DNA of 26,044 bases from Candidatus Zixiibacteriota bacterium (GTDB lineage Bacteria; Zixibacteria; MSB-5A5; CAIYYT01): positions 1-26,044 of the forward strand of contig JBECKX010000085.1 in assembly GCA_040235515.1 (NCBI GenBank), written 5' to 3'. A program made the translations under genes and the position numbers. The notes under the pieces are model-generated. The model made no database searches and was not told the origin of the DNA. It saw only the letters and a list, made by a program, of their open reading frames with translations. Positions 12,823-26,044 of this stretch are shown one piece after another (positions within the stretch are counted from its first letter, which is position 1; each line of letters starts with the position of its first letter).

Positions 12823-13797
12823 CTACTGAGAGCATCCGGGCGGCGATCCCCCGCCAAAGAGATACTGGATAAGCCCCACGGCATCCCCCAGTGACAGGAC
12901 GCCGTCGCAGTTGACATCCCCGCGCACCGGGTCACAATTGTTCGGGAGCTGGTTTACCGTCACTTTGATAGTGAGCGGCAGTTCATATTGCGCCGTATCG
13001 ATTATGCGCACATAGAGATTCCAGATACCATACTGAAAGATTCCCGGAATCCAGGGAATCGAAGCAGGATTGGTACCAACCACTGCAGGGAGTGAATCGC
13101 TTGCGATCTGGTCACCGGTAACAGCATTCACAATGCTGTCCACAACGACTGCGGCTACGGGCAAAGACGAGTAGACTTCGACGACAATCGGTATCTCATA
13201 CCCGGCATTACCGGTATAGGTAGTCTGAGAAATCAGGAAGAACTCGCCCGGTGCGTTTTCCAGCGTAAGGACGCCGCCAACGAACTGCGGCACGAATTCG
13301 TTCTGACCGCTAAGGAAAATCACGGGGCCTGCAGGGATTGTGTATGCCGTATCTACTTCAATCTGTTGGCCACCAATCGCTCCGTGGAAGAACACATCCC
13401 CCAGCTTGTAGCGTCCCGGCGGCAGGGAGTTATTGCCGATGGCCGCCAGCGGGACCGTATCTGGAAGTGTGCCCTCCAGAGTAATCGAATATTGGCCGAA
13501 ACCGAGAAGTTCGAACGCCACAACAACCTCGGGTGAGGAGGCAGCTATCGAAACCGAGTCGAAGGCAACCCCCGGGTGTAGTGTGCCGAACTCCATCCCG
13601 AAATTGAAGGCGTTCACCGGTTCGTCGCAGGTGAAAAAGACGGGTACCTTGTAGTTCCCGTTAAGAATCCCGAAGGCTTTGCCATCCTCTCCAAAATAGA
13701 GGGTGTCTGGTACCCCGGGGTCGGCAGCCAGAACAATCCCGGTTGAGAAGACCAGAATCAGGCCGGCAGCGAGTATTTTCAAGAACAGGTTGTTCAT
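12823..13797 (-). CDS. Secreted beta-sandwich protein with C-terminal dockerin repeat (paralog B)
   Basis: Signal peptide MNNLFLKILAAGLILVFSTGIVLA; DPGVPDT start; RGDVNCDGVLSLGDAVGLIQYLFGGGSPP; RBS GGAG before ATG 13797. Confidence 0.85.
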   Translation of the reverse strand: MNNLFLKILAAGLILVFSTGIVLAADPGVPDTLYFGEDGKAFGILNGNYKVPVFFTCDEPVNAFNFGMEFGTLHPGVAFDSVSIAASSPEVVVAFELLGFGQYSITLEGTLPDTVPLAAIGNNSLPPGRYKLGDVFFHGAIGGQQIEVDTAYTIPAGPVIFLSGQNEFVPQFVGGVLTLENAPGEFFLISQTTYTGNAGYEIPIVVEVYSSLPVAAVVVDSIVNAVTGDQIASDSLPAVVGTNPASIPWIPGIFQYGIWNLYVRIIDTAQYELPLTIKVTVNQLPNNCDPVRGDVNCDGVLSLGDAVGLIQYLFGGGSPPGCSQ

Positions 13798-13842
13798 TTC
13801 ATATCTCCATTCCAAGGCAGTTAGCGACTTCTGCATGACACT

Positions 13843-14820
13843 CTACCGGCACTGCGGTGGTAATCCACCGCCGAAGATGTAGTTGATAAGATAGACCGCG
13901 TCTCCGATCGAGACGAAACCGTCACAGTTGGCGTCACCACGTACCACGTCGCAATCTTCCGGCAGTTCGTTGACGGTGATGTTGAGTGTCAACTCCAGCA
14001 TGTTGGTCGCCCCATCCGAGATTGTGAAGAACGCCTGCCACTCTCCATACTGGATAGTATTCGGAGTCCAGATTGCCTGGAATGGATTTGAGCCCATCAC
14101 GTTGGGTAGTGAGTCGGATGCAATCTGGAAGCCGCCCGAAACGTTCACGATGCTGTCGAGAGACGCGCTGTTGATTCCCCAGCCCGATACGACATCAAGC
14201 AGCAATGAAATCGGGTGTCCGGCATCGCCTGCGAATGACGTGGGAGTGAGAAGGTAGAATTCGCCGGGCGAGTTGGTAATCTCCAGGGTGCCGCCCACGA
14301 ATTGGGGTGCGTACTCTTCACCGAGAGGTTCAAGTAGCGCGAAATCCGCGGCTGGGGGAGCAAACGCGGAGTCGAAGGCGACAAACTCACCAAACGATGC
14401 TCCATGAAAGTAGACATCACCAAGCTTGTAGCGCCCCGGGCTCAATGGAGCATGAATCCCGAGACCGACCATCCCGATCGTATCGGGGAGAATACCGTCG
14501 CCCACATAGGTATATGCGCGGAAACTGAGTCCGTCGAAAACCGCCCAGGTCTCCGGGCTGGCGAAAACGGTAGATACAGAGTCGAATACTATGTTTGGAT
14601 TGAGCGGGAGCATCTCCATGCCTGGCTGGACAGCGATTACCGCCTGGTCAGACACCATGTAGATAGGTACTTTGAAGACGCCTCCAGCAAGCCCGTGAGC
14701 AGTTCCCTGGTCACCGAAGTAAACGGTGTCAGGGATGCCGGTATCTTGCGCATTGATTGTGTTGCACACAAGGAATGCCAGTGCTACCGACACCAAAAGT
14801 TCCTTGAGGGGGCTTCTCAT
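13843..14820 (-). CDS. Secreted beta-sandwich protein with C-terminal dockerin repeat (paralog A)
   Basis: Signal peptide; DTGIPDT; RGDANCDGFVSIGDAVYLINYIFGGGLPP; collinear with paralog B (PGRYKLGDV.FHGA, PQFVGG, QIASDSLP). Confidence 0.85.
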   Translation of the reverse strand: MRSPLKELLVSVALAFLVCNTINAQDTGIPDTVYFGDQGTAHGLAGGVFKVPIYMVSDQAVIAVQPGMEMLPLNPNIVFDSVSTVFASPETWAVFDGLSFRAYTYVGDGILPDTIGMVGLGIHAPLSPGRYKLGDVYFHGASFGEFVAFDSAFAPPAADFALLEPLGEEYAPQFVGGTLEITNSPGEFYLLTPTSFAGDAGHPISLLLDVVSGWGINSASLDSIVNVSGGFQIASDSLPNVMGSNPFQAIWTPNTIQYGEWQAFFTISDGATNMLELTLNITVNELPEDCDVVRGDANCDGFVSIGDAVYLINYIFGGGLPPQCR

Positions 14821-15122: not shown

Positions 15123-16202
15123 ATGCGTAATCTGGAAAGGATACAACCGGCGCGACCAGCGCTCGTCTGGAGTCTGACCCTCGTACTATTCGCCTCACTC
15201 TGCGTAACCCTCACTCCCGTGCAAGCTTGGGGGCAGGAGAGTGCCGCGGCGGACAGCCTCGGCGTCCATGAAAGGCTGGTGGAAGAGGCACAGGCCGTTG
15301 CGCCATTGATGAAATCGACTCTGGCGAAGCGCTTGCTGGAAGCCAGCAGCAGTCTGCCGGTGATCTCCGAACCGCGCGTTCTTTACACAAACGCGGAGAC
15401 CAGGGAAGTGCTGAGTGAGGCCGAAGCAGCGGAGCTCTCCGAGGAGGAGTTGAGCGGCTTTGAGGCAAAGGAGCGAGATGGAGAATTCTATTACTACACC
15501 GGTTATGGCACACCCCTTGCCGCGGTGCATGCTTATGACCTGGTCGCGCAGCAGACCCTGCCACCTGCGAATGAACTGCGGATTCTGGAGTTCGGTTATG
15601 GATCGATCGGCCAACTGCGGTTGCTGGCGAGCCTCGGCGCAGAGGTGACCGGCATCGAAGTCAGCAAGACGTTGCGGGCTCTCTATAGCTATCCGGGTGA
15701 TACCGGCAAAATTGCGGCCGCAGCGGTCGAGGGGGCGAAGGCTGGCTATCTGAAGCTGATCGATGGTCACTTCCCCGGCGACAGCGCGGTCATGAGCCAG
15801 ATCAGTGGGTCATACGATATCTTCCTGTCAAAGAACACCCTCAAGCGCGGCTACATCCATCCCGAAGCTGAGGTTGACCCGAGGATGCTTGTTCACCTCG
15901 GCGTAGATGATACGACATTCGTGGAGACGGTGCATCGGCTGCTGAAACCGGGAGGGTACTTCATGATTTACAACCTCTGCCCGAAGTATACCCCGCCCGA
16001 TGCAGATAAGTATATCCCGTGGTCGGATGGTCGCTGCCCCTTCGATCGGGAACTGATCGAGAAGAGCGGTTTTGAGGTGATCGAGTATAACCGGGACGAC
16101 ACGGAGTTCGCCCATACGATGGCGAAGGCGTTTGGCTGGGACTCGATGATGGATCTTGAGAACGATCTCTACGGTGTCTATACACTGCTGCGAAGAAAGT
16201 AA
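15123..16202 (+). CDS. Class I SAM-dependent methyltransferase-fold protein with signal peptide
   Basis: Motif I-like ILEFGYGSIG, VTGIEVS, YDIFLS, HRLLKPGGYF; N-terminal h-region ending VQA; RBS AAGGAG. Confidence 0.78.
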   Translation: MRNLERIQPARPALVWSLTLVLFASLCVTLTPVQAWGQESAAADSLGVHERLVEEAQAVAPLMKSTLAKRLLEASSSLPVISEPRVLYTNAETREVLSEAEAAELSEEELSGFEAKERDGEFYYYTGYGTPLAAVHAYDLVAQQTLPPANELRILEFGYGSIGQLRLLASLGAEVTGIEVSKTLRALYSYPGDTGKIAAAAVEGAKAGYLKLIDGHFPGDSAVMSQISGSYDIFLSKNTLKRGYIHPEAEVDPRMLVHLGVDDTTFVETVHRLLKPGGYFMIYNLCPKYTPPDADKYIPWSDGRCPFDRELIEKSGFEVIEYNRDDTEFAHTMAKAFGWDSMMDLENDLYGVYTLLRRK

Positions 16203-16279: not shown

Positions 16280-16930
16280 AAACGATCCAGGGACGGATGG
16301 TGTATCCGTCCCTGGTCACGGTAGATCAAGACCCCTTAGGTGGGGGTTTTGATTGGAAAGGCTAGCGAGAGATCGTCGGTCAGGTTGGTTGATGTGCCGG
16401 ACGGAGATCTCATTATTGTCACAGCATCACGAAAAGCCTTGATCTGCCGGATTTAGGCTCCTCGCAACCGAGGTCTGTGACTCTAACTGACCTCCGCAGA
16501 CACAGTTTGACCATGCATCGGTTCTGCATCAGGTAACCTGATCAGAGCCGATGTTGCGATCCGCTCGTAGCCTCAAGCGGGGTTAACAGCGATTTCGCGT
16601 GAGCGCATGGCGCTCCGACAGCGGCTATTTTCCCACTCAGTTGTGTAAGGAGGTACGATCAAACCGAAACCTCACGCCACCTCCGACTATGCTCAGCGCC
16701 AATTGGCTTGCCTGCACATTGGGAGTCCTCATGTCGCGAGGTTCCGACTGCGAATCTCTTTCTATTCTGTTTTTGATGTCGATCCGAAAGTGCTTCTCGG
16801 CCTGATGAGAAATAGGTGAGGGATTGCCAGCAGATCCGGCACCGCTGCCTGACGATACCAGATTGGGCGGAATCGACTTCCATGTCTTTCGACTTATGCT
16901 CGAATCGGAAACCTGAGCCTTTTCACTCCA
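16280..16930 (+). ncRNA. Candidate structured non-coding RNA region of unknown family
   Basis: No credible ORF in a ~900-nt gap; many nested helices whose G-U pairs favour the + strand. Confidence 0.35.
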
Positions 16931-17102
16931 GCTACCTTTCAAGCCAAATTACCATAATCTTCCGCGTGATTAAACGCAGAATAGCACTATAAAGTTCCCG
17001 AATTGATACGACGTGGAAAAGCCGTCAATGTGGAATCGTATCTTGCAACTTTGCTTTGCAGTCGCAAAATTTGATTCCGAACTCAAATCGCAGGGAGGTA
17101 TG

Positions 17103-18107
17103 ATGAAAACTGGAGATTTGATACCCAAATTCACTTCGTTTATAGCGCTGTTGCTGCTAACCGCGCTCGTGGCTCAGGCCACGAGCGAAGATTTGAAGCC
17201 GTTGCACCCGGTTAACACCTATTCGATCGTCGCCTTCGACAGCACAACCGGTCAATTCGGTGCCGCCGTGCAATCGCATTGGTTCAAGGTTGCGGATGTC
17301 ATCTGGGCGGAGCCGGGAGTGGGCGCGGTGGCGACGCAAAGTCTTGCAGAGTTCAGTTACGGCGCCCTCGGATTGGAAATGATGCGTCTGGGGAAAACCG
17401 CCGAGCAGGCTTTGAACGGTTTGCTGGCCAGCGATCCCAACAGCGCGGTCAGACAGGTCGCTATGATTGATCGGAATGGCGTCGTGGCGACCCACACGGG
17501 AGCGAAATGCATCGCCTATGCCGGGCATCATGTTGGCTATCACTACTCGGTTCAGGCCAACTTGATGGCAGACTCGACCGTCTGGGGGGCGATGGCGGCG
17601 GCGTTTGAGCGCAGCGGTGGTGATCTGGCAGAGAGGATGATGGCAGCGTTGGAGGCGGCGCAGGGGGAGGGTGGCGACATCCGAGGAATGCAGAGTGCCG
17701 CAATGCTGGTAGTCTCAGGAGACCCGACCGGTCAACCGTGGCGTGATCGGCAGGTAGACCTCCGCGTCGACGACTCGCCTCAACCGTTGACCGAGCTACG
17801 TCGACTACTCAATATCTCGCGCGCCTATGATCATATGGATAAGGGGGATGAATACATCGCCGAGGAAGATTTCGAAGCTGCAAACAGAGAGTACGCCACT
17901 GCGGCTGACCTGGCGCCGGGGAATCCGGAGATATTATTCTGGCATGCTGTGACGCTGGTGAGCGCCGGTGAAGTCGCACGCTCTCTCCCCATTTTCAAGC
18001 AGGTGTTCAGTCAGGACGCTAACTGGCGCGAACTGGTGCCACGGCTGGTTGAAGCCGATTTGTTGCCGGGCGATGCTGCCGTCATCCAGCAGATCGTCTC
18101 GCAGTAA
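17103..18107 (+). CDS. DUF1028 family Ntn-hydrolase with signal peptide and C-terminal TPR
   Basis: TYSIVAFD..TGQFGAAVQS, GVGAVATQ, RQVAMID, HTG..C, QANLM, GGDIRG.QSAA, DLRVDD..P..EL.RL; RBS GGAGG. Confidence 0.9.
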   Translation: MKTGDLIPKFTSFIALLLLTALVAQATSEDLKPLHPVNTYSIVAFDSTTGQFGAAVQSHWFKVADVIWAEPGVGAVATQSLAEFSYGALGLEMMRLGKTAEQALNGLLASDPNSAVRQVAMIDRNGVVATHTGAKCIAYAGHHVGYHYSVQANLMADSTVWGAMAAAFERSGGDLAERMMAALEAAQGEGGDIRGMQSAAMLVVSGDPTGQPWRDRQVDLRVDDSPQPLTELRRLLNISRAYDHMDKGDEYIAEEDFEAANREYATAADLAPGNPEILFWHAVTLVSAGEVARSLPIFKQVFSQDANWRELVPRLVEADLLPGDAAVIQQIVSQ

Positions 18108-22404: not shown

Positions 22405-23418
22405 TTACGGAACGAGATACTCCGGCGAGCGGGGGAGTTCGACAGCGAGTTTGATGCTGTTGATGCGGTTTGTCGGGCTTTGTTCCTCGCGCGCAGCGAG
22501 CACCGACTGGACGACACGCTCAAAACCGATGCCGCAACCGGCGGACTGACCTTCACCTTTACTCAAGACGTCGAAGTACCAACTGAACTGCTCCGGATCG
22601 ACGCCGCGATCGATCAGGTGGTCATACATGTATGACTCCTCGAACTGCTTCTTGCAGACCGCCGCGTCACCTTCACGTACAGCGCCGCCGACCGACTCGC
22701 CGACGTGAGGCAGCAGCAGATCACAGCAGATCGTCTCATCACCATCACGCTTCATCGAGAAGAACTTGATCACACCACCCTCGCGCGGTTTCGGGTCGGC
22801 CGGATAGTGGGTCACGAAGGTGGGACGGCCGTGCAGGTACTCGCAGATCGCGAGTTCCTCGGCGCTACCGAGGTCGTCGCCATACTCAACGTCGTGACAG
22901 TGTTGTTGCAGGGTGGTAATGACATCCGCATACTTGATGCGATTGAAGGGTTGGTTGATATACTCGGCGAGGCGAGTGCTGGGGACGACAGTCACCGCGG
23001 CGCGGTACATCGACTTGATGATGCCCTCGACATTGTCCATCAATCCATCGAGTTCAAAGTCACGGCCTTCGAACTCAATCAGAGTGAACTCACACAGGTG
23101 CCGATCGGTGACCTTGCGCTCCTGGCGGAAGGATGGACCGATCGTGAAGACGCGATTGTGAACGTGCGTGAATGCTTCAAGGTAGAGTTGACCGGTCTGC
23201 CGCAGGAACATCTGCTGCTCTTCGCCGCCCGGCTCGTACATCGTTACCGACATCGCGTTCGGAAACCATTCGCATGAGCCGGTGGCACCGGTGATATGGG
23301 GAACGCAGATCTCCATGAACTCGTTCTCTCCGAACCACTCGCGGGCTGCCTTGAGCATCTTCGAACGAAGCAGAGTTGTTTGCAGAAACCGACCTTCCAG
23401 GACCTCAAAGTGACGCAT
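22405..23418 (-). CDS. AsnRS/AspRS-like class IIb catalytic domain without anticodon-binding domain; probable asparagine synthetase A, archaeal type
   Basis: Motif 1 (AREWF..F.EI..P.IT), FLRQTGQLYLE, motif 2 GPSFRQE..RHLCEF, DLLLP.VGESVGGAVRE, WY, motif 3 GCGIGFER; 337 aa, no N-terminal OB fold; RBS GGAGG at 23427-23431. Confidence 0.85.
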   Translation of the reverse strand: MRHFEVLEGRFLQTTLLRSKMLKAAREWFGENEFMEICVPHITGATGSCEWFPNAMSVTMYEPGGEEQQMFLRQTGQLYLEAFTHVHNRVFTIGPSFRQERKVTDRHLCEFTLIEFEGRDFELDGLMDNVEGIIKSMYRAAVTVVPSTRLAEYINQPFNRIKYADVITTLQQHCHDVEYGDDLGSAEELAICEYLHGRPTFVTHYPADPKPREGGVIKFFSMKRDGDETICCDLLLPHVGESVGGAVREGDAAVCKKQFEESYMYDHLIDRGVDPEQFSWYFDVLSKGEGQSAGCGIGFERVVQSVLAAREEQSPTNRINSIKLAVELPRSPEYLVP

Positions 23419-23478
23419 CAGCGTGACCTCCATTGATTGGTAGTTAGATGGGTAGTTATCGCCTTGAGTAACAGGCAT

Positions 23479-23510
23479 AAAAAAACGCCACCCGGAAAAT
23501 CCGGATGGCG
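23479..23510 (-). terminator. Leader (attenuator) terminator about 60 nt upstream of the AsnRS-like start codon
   Basis: CGCCATCCGGA-TTT-TCCGGGTGGCG followed by T7. Confidence 0.88.
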
Positions 23511-23687
23511 ACGACTTTCAAATACAATAGCCGCAGCAAGAAAGAATGCTCCTGCGAGATCAGTCTTGTACAAGACCAACCTCCGGCGCGTACGACCTTA
23601 TGCTCAGAATCGTTTTCAAACCTGCTGCACTCTCACCTGTCGCGCCAGCTCCAGCCGCGGCACGACTTTATACTCCCTGAACTGCAT
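23479..23687 (-). promoter_or_regulatory. T-box-like leader / transcription attenuator
   Basis: Stem I-like 23687-23600 with AGUA/GAA loop-E halves, apical GGUGAGA and AAC after GAA; two further hairpins; terminator; canonical UGGNACC absent. Confidence 0.55.
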
Positions 23688-23882
23688 TTCCCCCTGATTC
23701 GCTGTATGAATGTCCTTAAAGCTACATGGATAGAAATTCTTGACGTTTAGTCAAGATAAAATTTCTCGCGGATCAAAAAAGTGTTGGTGCAGGTGGCTGG
23801 AGCGGGTCTGCGGCGACGGCGCAAGGAGGGTGGGATCGGCTGGAGTGGCATTTAGTCCGGGGCTGTGACTGTCCTGTCGATT

Positions 23883-24152
23883 CTAACGGTGCCAGAGATA
23901 TTGCGCGGCATTGAGGACGACGCCGAAGTAAAACAGCATTCCGCCCCACCATGCCAGTCGGGCGCCACGCTGGCCGAAGCGACGGCGCAGGCTGCGGAAA
24001 CTACTGAAGAGGTGCGGAACCTCGTCATCAGAATCATGCAGATGGCGGTAGGCCAGCAGAGAGATTACCAATCCCCAGATGATTCCCATCCCGGCTACAA
24101 TCACGACCAGGTCATCTCGCAGCAACGACAGCAGATCAGCTATTTCAATCAT
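23883..24152 (-). CDS. Small membrane protein with two TM helices (89 aa)
   Basis: Strong RBS GGAAGGAGG; two hydrophobic segments separated by a basic loop. Confidence 0.65.
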   Translation of the reverse strand: MIEIADLLSLLRDDLVVIVAGMGIIWGLVISLLAYRHLHDSDDEVPHLFSSFRSLRRRFGQRGARLAWWGGMLFYFGVVLNAAQYLWHR

Positions 24153-24225
24153 CTCTGGCCTCCTTCCCGGCGATCAAAGCGCCGGCGAGGATATTAGCGC
24201 AAGATGGTTGCCAATCGCTGCGGCG

Positions 24226-24309
24226 CTAGCGGCGCGATCGGCCGAGGATAAAACCGATCACCAGACCCACGAAGAGTACCAACAGGATAAGGAGGAGTCG
24301 ACTGATCAT
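24226..24309 (-). CDS. 27-aa single-TM small protein MISRLLLILLVLFVGLVIGFILGRSRR
   Basis: Translated by hand (absent from the ORF track); long hydrophobic core with GxxxGxxxG and basic tail; promoter TTGACT-17-CAAATT 6 nt before the ATG. Confidence 0.65.
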   Translation of the reverse strand: MISRLLLILLVLFVGLVIGFILGRSRR

Positions 24310-24575
24310 GCAGCGAATTTGAACAGAGCGTAACTGAAAGTCAATCGGAATCGAGGGGGTCTCGCAGTGACCGCACGGGCGCATCTTTGCGCAAACGATT
24401 TCACCGTGACCGCGCGAGAATATGCAGATGAATTCAACTATCGTCGGGTTTACCGGCTGCCGAAATGGGTCTGAATTGTCGGCTGCAACCGAGAAATAAG
24501 GGAACCATTGGCTGGATAGTGGTTTATACCAACCGAATCAACTGCGGCATCAATTGAGTCCTTCACCCATTTAGC

Positions 24576-24590: not shown

Positions 24591-24887
24591 GCTGGTAGAC
24601 CCTGTTAGACTTGACAAAAATTACTCCTAATCGTTAATTCTTCGGTGGTTAAGCCCTTTAAGCACCAAGAAATGTAATTGGAACGAGGTTTTATCGACCG
24701 ATAGGTAATTGTAAACGGGCTGTTGCGGCAGCCGCGATGTTTACCCGAAACACCTGCACGACTTGCTTGCGCAGAATACTGCGATGAGTAAATTACTCGT
24801 CTCTCCGGTTCGAACGAATGGCAGACGAGAAAGCTGGCGAGTCTTCAAGGTGGTAATTCGAGGACAGATTTCCGGTCGACAAAACTG

Positions 24888-26044
24888 ATGTTTCGATTTA
24901 CAGTCGTATTCTATTCATTTCTCCCGCTCGTTCTAATACTTGCGCCACTTGCTGATCGCAGCCAGTTGATGGCGGCGTTGGTGGATGTTGAGCATTCCTC
25001 GCGTGCCGGAATCAATTTCACCGCACATCTGACCGGAGAGGATCATGCCTCTTCAGCGATCAACCAGAAGCGAGTCTCTTCCCGCTCAGCCTTCGGCGCA
25101 ACCGGAGTTGCCGCCGGCGTTGACGAGACTGCCGACTACGAGGTTTATTGCTTCGCCGTCCCACCCGGATTGCGAGCGGAGATTGGCAGTGTCCGGTTGA
25201 GAACGGCAGAGGGTGAATTACTACCCGACAACGCGGTTTCTCTTAGCCCTCCGATCGAGGTGCGGGGGCTCAGGCTGGCGAAGCTTGTCGTTCCGGTCAA
25301 AGTCGTGAGTGGCGCCCGGACTGCCAGCGTCGCCACGGTTTCGGCAGAGATTAGATTTACGGCGTCCGCTACGGCGGAAGCGCCCCCCATTCAGCGGCGC
25401 GGCAATGGCCGCCTCGATCAGATCATTCGCGCTCTGCTCCTGAATGAGGAACAGATTGATGAGTGGTTTCCGGCTGAGTTGGCAAAGCCCCTCCAGAGCG
25501 CGCAGAATCCATTCCCGAATTCCACGCAATGGTACAGGGTGACCACTGACGTGAGTGGTATCTACCAGATCACCGGCGCTGATTTGAATCAAGCCGGCGT
25601 GAACCTTGCCACACTCAACCCGGCGCAGTTCAGGTTGTTCTACGCCGGCGGAAAACCGCTACCGCTCGAAAACGACGCTCCACATGACTCACTTCGCGAA
25701 GTCGCGATACTGGTTCAGGATGGTGGTGACGGGCGGTTCGACTCGCAGGATAAGCTGCAGTTCTACGCCGATGGCGGTGATTTCTGGGATTATGCCCAAA
25801 AGGAGCCGGAGTACATCTTCAATCCATATAGTGAGCGGAATGTATACTACCTGGCGTTGTCAGGCAGCTTCAGCGGTCAACCCGCACGGATTCCCGTAGT
25901 AGCGGGTGGCGGCGTATCCACCCCCGACACAGCGACGCAATTCATTGACTATATCCACAGAGAAGAGAATCTTGATCTCTCTGAGAATTCATCCGGCGAT
26001 GTCTTCGACTACTATCACTGGTATTGGGGCTTGGCGGGAGATAA
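24888..26044 (+). CDS. porU: PorU-like type IX secretion sortase / C25 (gingipain-family) protein; runs off the window end
   Basis: Hand translation, open to the end: signal peptide MFRFTVVFYSFLPLVLILAP.., WYRVTTDVSGIYQITGADL..G, FRLFYAGGKPL, LREVAILVQDGGDGRFDSQDKLQFY, NPYSERNVYYL; catalytic domain lies outside the window. Confidence 0.75.
   Translation, partial: MFRFTVVFYSFLPLVLILAPLADRSQLMAALVDVEHSSRAGINFTAHLTGEDHASSAINQKRVSSRSAFGATGVAAGVDETADYEVYCFAVPPGLRAEIGSVRLRTAEGELLPDNAVSLSPPIEVRGLRLAKLVVPVKVVSGARTASVATVSAEIRFTASATAEAPPIQRRGNGRLDQIIRALLLNEEQIDEWFPAELAKPLQSAQNPFPNSTQWYRVTTDVSGIYQITGADLNQAGVNLATLNPAQFRLFYAGGKPLPLENDAPHDSLREVAILVQDGGDGRFDSQDKLQFYADGGDFWDYAQKEPEYIFNPYSERNVYYLALSGSFSGQPARIPVVAGGGVSTPDTATQFIDYIHREENLDLSENSSGDVFDYYHWYWGLAGD

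Follow-up and report, generated by a model that had tools for sequence, protein, structure and literature searches.

What occupies the gene-free gap of 897 nt that separates a methyltransferase-like gene (15123–16202) from a gene for a DUF1028 and TPR protein (17100–18107), both on the plus strand, in the near-complete 3.6-Mb genome (G000) of a Candidatus Zixiibacteriota bacterium? The gap lies on contig C199, the 26,044-nt stretch of DNA that was analysed as a whole (the window), in surroundings of chromosomal housekeeping genes annotated by eye (enolase, tRNA synthetases and a recO-like gene). An earlier note had proposed that it holds an undescribed, selected, structured RNA read from the plus strand. 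Most of this proposal stood, as we found a syntenic homologue, compensatory changes, no match in Rfam and no conserved open reading frame (ORF); its choice of strand is probably wrong. We consider it very probable that the gap contains a real conserved structured element. This covers 16285–16945 (~660 nt), its right end at about 16945 falling a little past the 16930 of the earlier note, and the transcribed strand is likely the minus strand. The left neighbour would then be convergent with the RNA and the right neighbour divergent from it, both being given as context only. As to its nature, the sequences lead us, with marginally better than even confidence, to regard it as a candidate stand-alone noncoding RNA that would act in trans.

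The pairings listed in the earlier note hold when read pair by pair. The hairpin at 16287–16315 (H1) has 12 of 12 Watson-Crick pairs and that at 16325–16353 (H2) 11 pairs, including one G-T, while the domain at 16378–16492 is made of 6 + 4 pairs flanking a bulge, with one G-T. Within it, the closing stem GTCACAG/CTGTGAC (16418–16481) pairs at 7/7 positions and the junction arms AGCCT/AGGCT and CCTCG/CGAGG at 5/5 each. Further right, the hairpin of about 18 bp at 16515–16554 consists of 12 + 6 pairs with two G-T, CCGCT/AGCGG (16561–16580) pairs at 5/5 and GAGCGC/GCGCTC (16601–16615) at 6/6. The long-range pairing ~16739/16914 has 5 + 4 pairs flanking a bulge; it is an alternative to a better conserved helix, 16664/16747, and the conserved stem that closes the end of the element (16356/16940) was absent from the list.

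The folding check proposed in the earlier note placed the region 16280–16930 well below shuffled sequences on both strands (z −6.28 on plus and −8.56 on minus, with 0/20 shuffles as good on either). For 300-nt windows, the scores were −6.9 (plus) and −11.2 (minus) from 16285, and −2.6 (plus) and −6.7 (minus) from 16356, where the two left hairpins are left out. For a background, 300-nt windows were drawn from 59 of the genome's 394 gene-free stretches, each scored on its best strand; the median z was −1.0, and two of the 59 scored −7 or below, one of these two being a cluster of repeat hairpins. The folding signal of the element is concentrated in 16285–16680: 200-nt windows taken from 16585–16945 do not reach significance (z from +0.6 to +1.0 on plus and from −0.3 to −1.8 on minus). 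Elsewhere in the genome, a gene-free stretch of contig C35 (~977–1277) folds with a z of −9.7 into long irregular stems and is, by eye, no repeat cluster. A palindrome family, CCCCTCTCCC...GGGAGAGGGG, found on many contigs, accounts for many of the genome's 90 perfect hairpins of at least 11 bp. H1 was itself considered as a repeat family and rejected, its six loci at loose match having flanks that are all different.

A blastn search of related genomes, also proposed in the earlier note, identified a syntenic homologue in another species of the same genus (G001), where the element lies between the same two genes and is ~100 nt shorter (~560 nt). It was positive in 2/61 genomes, the host's own and this one, both of sediment bacteria. 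The two species have diverged far: identity at fourfold-degenerate sites of the flanking genes is 41/129 (0.32) and 35/121 (0.29), near saturation. Across this distance the element keeps 11 exact runs of 9–19 nt and a 59-nt block (16305–16363) with 92% identity, and such retention requires a present function. Indels of 1, 2, 15, 25 and 32 nt, together with stops in all frames, argue against coding. No ORF at the element is conserved between the two species, so that a type I toxin-antitoxin mRNA, with its small hydrophobic ORF behind a sequestered Shine-Dalgarno sequence, was rejected; the two ORFs that overlap the element had no Pfam match. A pseudogene is improbable as well, the tblastx matches being short, scattered over all frames and broken by stops. 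Folding is weaker in the homologue (z −3.3 on plus and −4.5 on minus), and beyond its first 200 nt mostly no better than in shuffles.

Other spacers of the window also contain invariant blocks, of 27–31 nt, so conservation alone is not special and the case depends on pairing between the blocks. Other parts of the window have features of their own. At 24612–24890 (plus) there is a separate and more widely conserved leader, in which a block (24684–24709) lies downstream of a sigma-70-like promoter; the block is matched in 16/21 genomes of the family and is complementary to the likely translation-start region (~24872–24888) of the next gene, which by eye looks secreted and gingipain-like. This leader folds with a z of −3.3 on the plus strand, its pairing is kept in an 11-sequence alignment and it has no Rfam match; we regard it as a candidate undescribed cis-regulatory RNA. 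The leader (23480–23770, minus) of a class II tRNA synthetase gene (22405–23478) shares invariant blocks with G001, among them a hairpin (23487–23512) and a 27-nt run near 23707–23733, and gave no T-box match in Rfam. A region of short minus-strand ORFs at 23780–24330 (23883–24152 and upstream) has codon-like conservation in G001 and may encode an unannotated small membrane protein. Finally, at 12823–14820 (minus) a tandem pair of paralogous genes for secreted proteins, whose ends look dockerin-like by eye and which had no Pfam match, corresponds to a single gene in G001.

Pairing between invariant blocks of the element was assessed by duplex tests against column shuffles, one for each pair of blocks and strand, with blocks that were hand-chosen by eye. 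Six of the 182 tests reached the floor p of 0.0033, where ~0.6 would be expected, joining blocks that lie up to 580 nt apart; three of these six best pairings are on the plus strand. We then tabulated ten homologous helices, six of which nest within one another, three of which favour plus and the tenth of which is neutral. The nested six are H1, P1 (16356/16940), 16419/16480, 16429/16465, 16664/16747 and 16778/16877. Read on the minus strand they contain six two-sided and five one-sided compatible changes and one mismatch cell; on plus there are four two-sided changes, one one-sided change and 12 mismatch cells. Since only two distinct sequences of the element are known, covariation is beyond statistical testing, and the helices were chosen after looking. 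What the comparison does show is that the element is homologous in the two species, is under selection and has shared helices that nest.

From left to right, the perfect 12-bp hairpin H1 (16287–16315) retains 11 bp in G001, where one pair has changed on both sides and the loop differs; its U-tract is weak in the host and absent in G001. In a minus-strand model H1 would be the 3' terminal hairpin, possibly in common with the convergent gene. H2 (16325–16353), inside the 92% block, is conserved with a 2-nt indel and competes with an invariant strand (16320–16328) that can form a 9-bp long-range pseudoknot, PK1, with 16440–16448. The strands of P1, 16356–16362 (3' strand on minus) and 16934–16940 (5' strand, close to the proposed 5' end), close a core of 585 nt through six invariant pairs and a seventh that changes from U-G to C-G on minus. 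The stem around the most conserved domain (16418–16481) has two two-sided changes among its six homologous pairs, and inside it stands an 11-bp helix (16429–16439/16455–16465) whose loop carries a PK1 strand; on minus this helix has 22/22 cells paired and two one-sided changes, and on plus six mismatch cells. The hairpin modules at 16515–16554, 16561–16580 and 16601–16615 belong to the host, G001 having a shorter, different stretch here. Next come a 10-bp helix (16664–16673/16738–16747, minus) with three two-sided changes, including a G-U/U-G swap, the right strand of which has a weaker alternative partner at 16905–16914, and an 8-bp helix (16778–16785/16870–16877, minus) that is fully paired in both species, with two one-sided changes. 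PK1 (16320/16448), a 6-bp helix (16845/16870) and a hairpin (16641/16658) that surrounds a Shine-Dalgarno (SD)-like motif have no mismatch cells on plus and nine on minus. Several invariant segments have two possible partners, and mutually exclusive pairings are seen in both species: an invariant 19-mer (16455–16473), for example, can pair with 16429–16439, with itself or with an invariant 16-mer (16638–16653). Such ambiguity may reflect tertiary contacts or a switch, between which two sequences cannot decide.

On which strand, then, would such an RNA be made? The earlier note had argued for plus from four wobble pairs, and all four are indeed G-U on that strand; they lie, however, at positions or in helices that are not kept in G001, and the changes in shared helices are mostly G-U on minus only. 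The energies agree with this. On minus, the minus helix set can be enforced for 1.6 and 2.7 kcal/mol in the two species, as against 6.8 and 11.9 kcal/mol for the best plus helix set on plus; with a strand-neutral set, the cost is 0.3 and 2.7 kcal/mol for minus versus 2.7 and 7.3 for plus. The strand asymmetry of the core relative to shuffles points towards minus (z −3.6 and −1.3), RNase P and tmRNA as controls scoring 2.0 and 1.0 towards their true strand, and consensus folding of the two sequences gave −107.1 on minus versus −94.1 on plus. With three tests (folding asymmetry, shared-helix changes and enforcing cost) in favour of minus and some helices in favour of plus, the plus-strand assignment is probably wrong. 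In both species a loose promoter scan detected sites in the right spacer that point leftwards; in the left spacer it detected no rightward site in either. The host's site (16946–16974, minus) is weak, an extended −10 ending at 16946 with 3 + 3 of 12 consensus matches plus TG; that of G001 matches at 10/12, lies 60 nt upstream of its P1 and is not at a homologous position. A stricter scan of the host found none.

The invariant 16-mer (16638–16653) is the most striking of the conserved segments. On minus it contains an anti-Shine-Dalgarno-like CCUCCUU, reading CCUCCUU-ACACAACUG, while the genome's 16S rRNA ends in GAUCACCUCCUUU; on plus it is SD-like, with no conserved ORF behind it, and a leader peptide was rejected here for want of a conserved ORF or start codon. 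On minus most of the 16-mer is free of pairing, CCUCCUU as such in G001 only; in the host its first four bases are paired in the ensemble. A search of the host genome for exact matches found no extended mRNA target and no match of 11 nt or more before an ORF, the best being 10-mers before two ORFs. In the 16S tail, Era recognises GAUCA together with the CCUCC that comes next (as described in PMC10582724); mimicry of its site is a weak proposal, because the GAUC part is present only in the host. In RNAIII, C-rich loops bind ribosome-binding sites (as described in PMC2837412).

We picture an RNA that would start in the spacer next to the DUF1028 gene, run leftwards and end at H1. P1 would close a multi-branch core with arms whose lengths vary by whole modules, and the loop of the best-conserved helix would pair with the 3' tail as a pseudoknot. 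Like OLE, ROOL and GOLLD, such an RNA could act in trans through its folded body. Its CCUCCUU, a copy of the 16S tail, would be masked when paired with the invariant 19-mer and otherwise exposed, and in the exposed state might titrate either mRNA ribosome-binding sites, in the manner of the C-rich loops in RNAIII, or proteins recognising the end of the 16S rRNA. A protein-binding or self-assembling scaffold is a tentative possibility and an SD-pairing regulator a doubtful one; the former requires no target and is slightly preferred. More boldly, the element may represent a new class of giant chromosomal RNA with a pseudoknotted core, which switches exclusive pairings to expose or hide its anti-Shine-Dalgarno copy and so mimics the small-subunit 3' end, a regulated decoy for mRNAs or for proteins that bind the tail, Era among them, a proposal that we rate as unlikely.

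The element is narrowly spread. It is single-copy in the genome, and three DNA runs from one study match it at 99% or more and add no variants; no RNA run was listed as containing the stretch, which speaks neither for nor against expression. A pattern scan over the phylum detected it in 2/285 genomes. With the G001 sequence as query, 19/285 genomes had matches at E ≤ 0.05, the 17 others being 19–37-nt matches that failed profile rescoring. Model R1 gave matches in 7/150, 1/108 and 0/52, R2 in 6/150 and R3 in 2/21; ten weak R1 and R2 matches were rejected as homologues, being short or gappy and in several cases inside ORFs. A pattern scan of metagenomes yielded one match, whose element sequence is the same as that of G001. 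All 89 loci from a GTDB pattern scan (best profile E 0.068) and all matches from seven viral scans (0, 16, 4, 1, 8, 30 and 4) were attributed to chance, and blastn against phages and plasmids gave one 34-nt match at E 0.7 and none, respectively. Exact patterns miss diverged members, so homologues elsewhere are best described as not found rather than absent. In a search of 5.8 billion proteins, identity to the left neighbour's protein fell from 70% (the species of G001) to 58%, and thus the genus appears thinly sampled; a named relative of this protein, at 56%, and the gene content both point to a member of the Zixibacteria. The 12 other genomes of the family that have the methyltransferase gene all lack the element next to it, and so do 28 of the 30 best DUF1028 loci; that it is attached to neither neighbour elsewhere argues for an independent unit.

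In the first of three other readings, the element would be a plus-strand cis-regulatory RNA, riboswitch-like or an attenuator, controlling read-through or translation towards the DUF1028 gene: the three-way junction and PK1 would form the sensor, and the 19-mer would switch between its own hairpin and the SD-like 16-mer. Several observations fit this. PK1 has a wobble that is U-G on plus and a C-A mismatch on minus, is paired at 9/9 positions on plus and is more stable there (−16.0 versus −10.8 kcal/mol on minus). The duplex of 19-mer and 16-mer is as good or better on plus (−14.5/−16.4 versus −13.6), plus accommodates three one-sided changes, the optimal plus-strand fold of either species has the junction, both neighbouring genes are on plus, and the same window has a leader that pairs with its start region. 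We nonetheless think it unlikely, as the SD-like motif is followed by no conserved ORF or start codon, while the DUF1028 gene begins 155 nt past the element with an SD and a promoter-like site of its own, and lacks the element at all but two of its 30 best loci. The loose scan, moreover, gave the left side no plus promoter, the energy tests favour minus and no riboswitch family in Rfam matches.

It is improbable that we are looking instead at a domesticated mobile-element part, RNA or single-stranded DNA (an IS200/IS605-type end, an omega-RNA, an ORF-less intron or a repeat cluster) that had become fixed before the species of the genus separated. The patchy spread in 2/285 genomes, the structure on both strands and also as DNA (z −6.2 and −4.0), and genes of the Y1 transposase family in both genomes would fit; so would H2, which we take to resemble the end hairpins of the IS200/IS605 family. 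Against this, the element is single-copy, shows no similarity to the flanks of four Y1 transposase loci and matches no HEARO or intron model; both genomes lack a TnpB zinc-ribbon domain and a reverse transcriptase, searches for which were positive in controls; and retention across near-saturated synonymous divergence demands a present function. A chain of separate sites, in which the left part would consist of a terminator or repeat hairpins, the right part of promoter or protein-binding elements, and the long-range helices would be partly chance, is quite improbable. It would account for the concentration of the folding signal on the left, for the invariant blocks of other spacers and for the repeat-hairpin cluster among the strongest background windows; it accords poorly with the complementarity of invariant blocks up to 580 nt apart (6/182 tests at floor p), with two-sided changes in interior helices and with six helices that nest at almost no energy cost. 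The stand-alone minus-strand RNA remains the reading that we prefer.

How does this candidate compare with known RNAs? Covariance-model searches against Rfam, a further check proposed in the earlier note, gave no match of note for window or element: at E ≤ 10 in Rfam 15 the host's element had four weak snoRNA, miRNA or CRISPR matches below gathering and that of G001 none, and the two weak matches of the whole window lie outside the element. ARAGORN called no tRNA or tmRNA in the window, in agreement with the earlier note; elsewhere in the genome it called a tRNA-Sec and a tRNA-Leu(aag). Several classes were considered and rejected. The genome has its own tmRNA (contig C142) and RNase P RNA (RF00010, contig C184), and the element has no ARAGORN match. 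6S RNA (RF00013) is a rod of ~190 nt with a central bubble, while the element is three times longer and branched; RF00013 had no match anywhere in the 100%-complete host genome. CsrA, the partner of CsrB/RsmZ-type sponges, is present in both genomes, but GGA occurs 9–15 times per strand versus 9–12 expected, 0–1 of them unpaired. Group II introns, retrons and other RNAs linked to reverse transcriptase were dismissed (PF00078 in 0/2 genomes and 3/14 controls; no intron model match), as was a hammerhead-like motif near 16801 that is not kept in G001. For IS200/IS605 omega-RNA, no ORF or remnant was found in six frames; TnpB (PF07282) is in 0/2 genomes and 8/14 controls, and PF14239 in 0/2 with the controls silent too. 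We assume a likeness of H2 to the end hairpin of HEARO/IscB omega-RNA and TnpB right-end RNA, and of the SD-like motif ~330 nt after H2 on plus to the arrangement in these RNAs; unlike them, the element has no nuclease ORF behind it, no HEARO score and a single copy.

RNAIII of Staphylococcus aureus has end-to-end pairing. With it and with the UCCC-motif sRNAs the candidate would have in common a large structured trans-acting RNA with conserved C-rich loops (as described in PMC2837412); unlike RNAIII, it has no sequence match, one C-rich segment rather than several and no embedded conserved ORF. Few bacterial structured RNAs longer than 500 nt are known, and the orphans among them, OLE, ROOL and GOLLD, form unexpected RNA-only assemblies (as described in PMC12286853). 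The element would be a further, unrelated large RNA, known in two natural forms that are set apart by entire modules, and could be tested in vitro without culturing the host; if its anti-SD segment is functional, it would link a large RNA of the orphan type to translation control. With two species, its general importance is limited. Our literature search found neither a description of the element nor any large RNA in print for the phylum; most subscription papers lay outside its scope, and supplements of RNA-motif discovery could list the element. The OLE, ROOL and HEARO models matched in 0/2 genomes each, the control genomes being silent too. The element differs from OLE, ROOL and GOLLD in having no covariance-model match to any Rfam family, in its housekeeping context as opposed to a prophage or tRNA island, and in its two species only, with much less covariation. 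It exceeds 500 nt and has nested helices, as large ornate RNAs do, its covariation coming from two sequences. In size class, multi-branch architecture, pseudoknots, variable linkers and unknown function it would be like OLE (RF01071), ROOL (RF03087; env-120 is 659 nt) and GOLLD, as these are described in PMC12286853, and it looks like a large ornate orphan RNA outside every described family.
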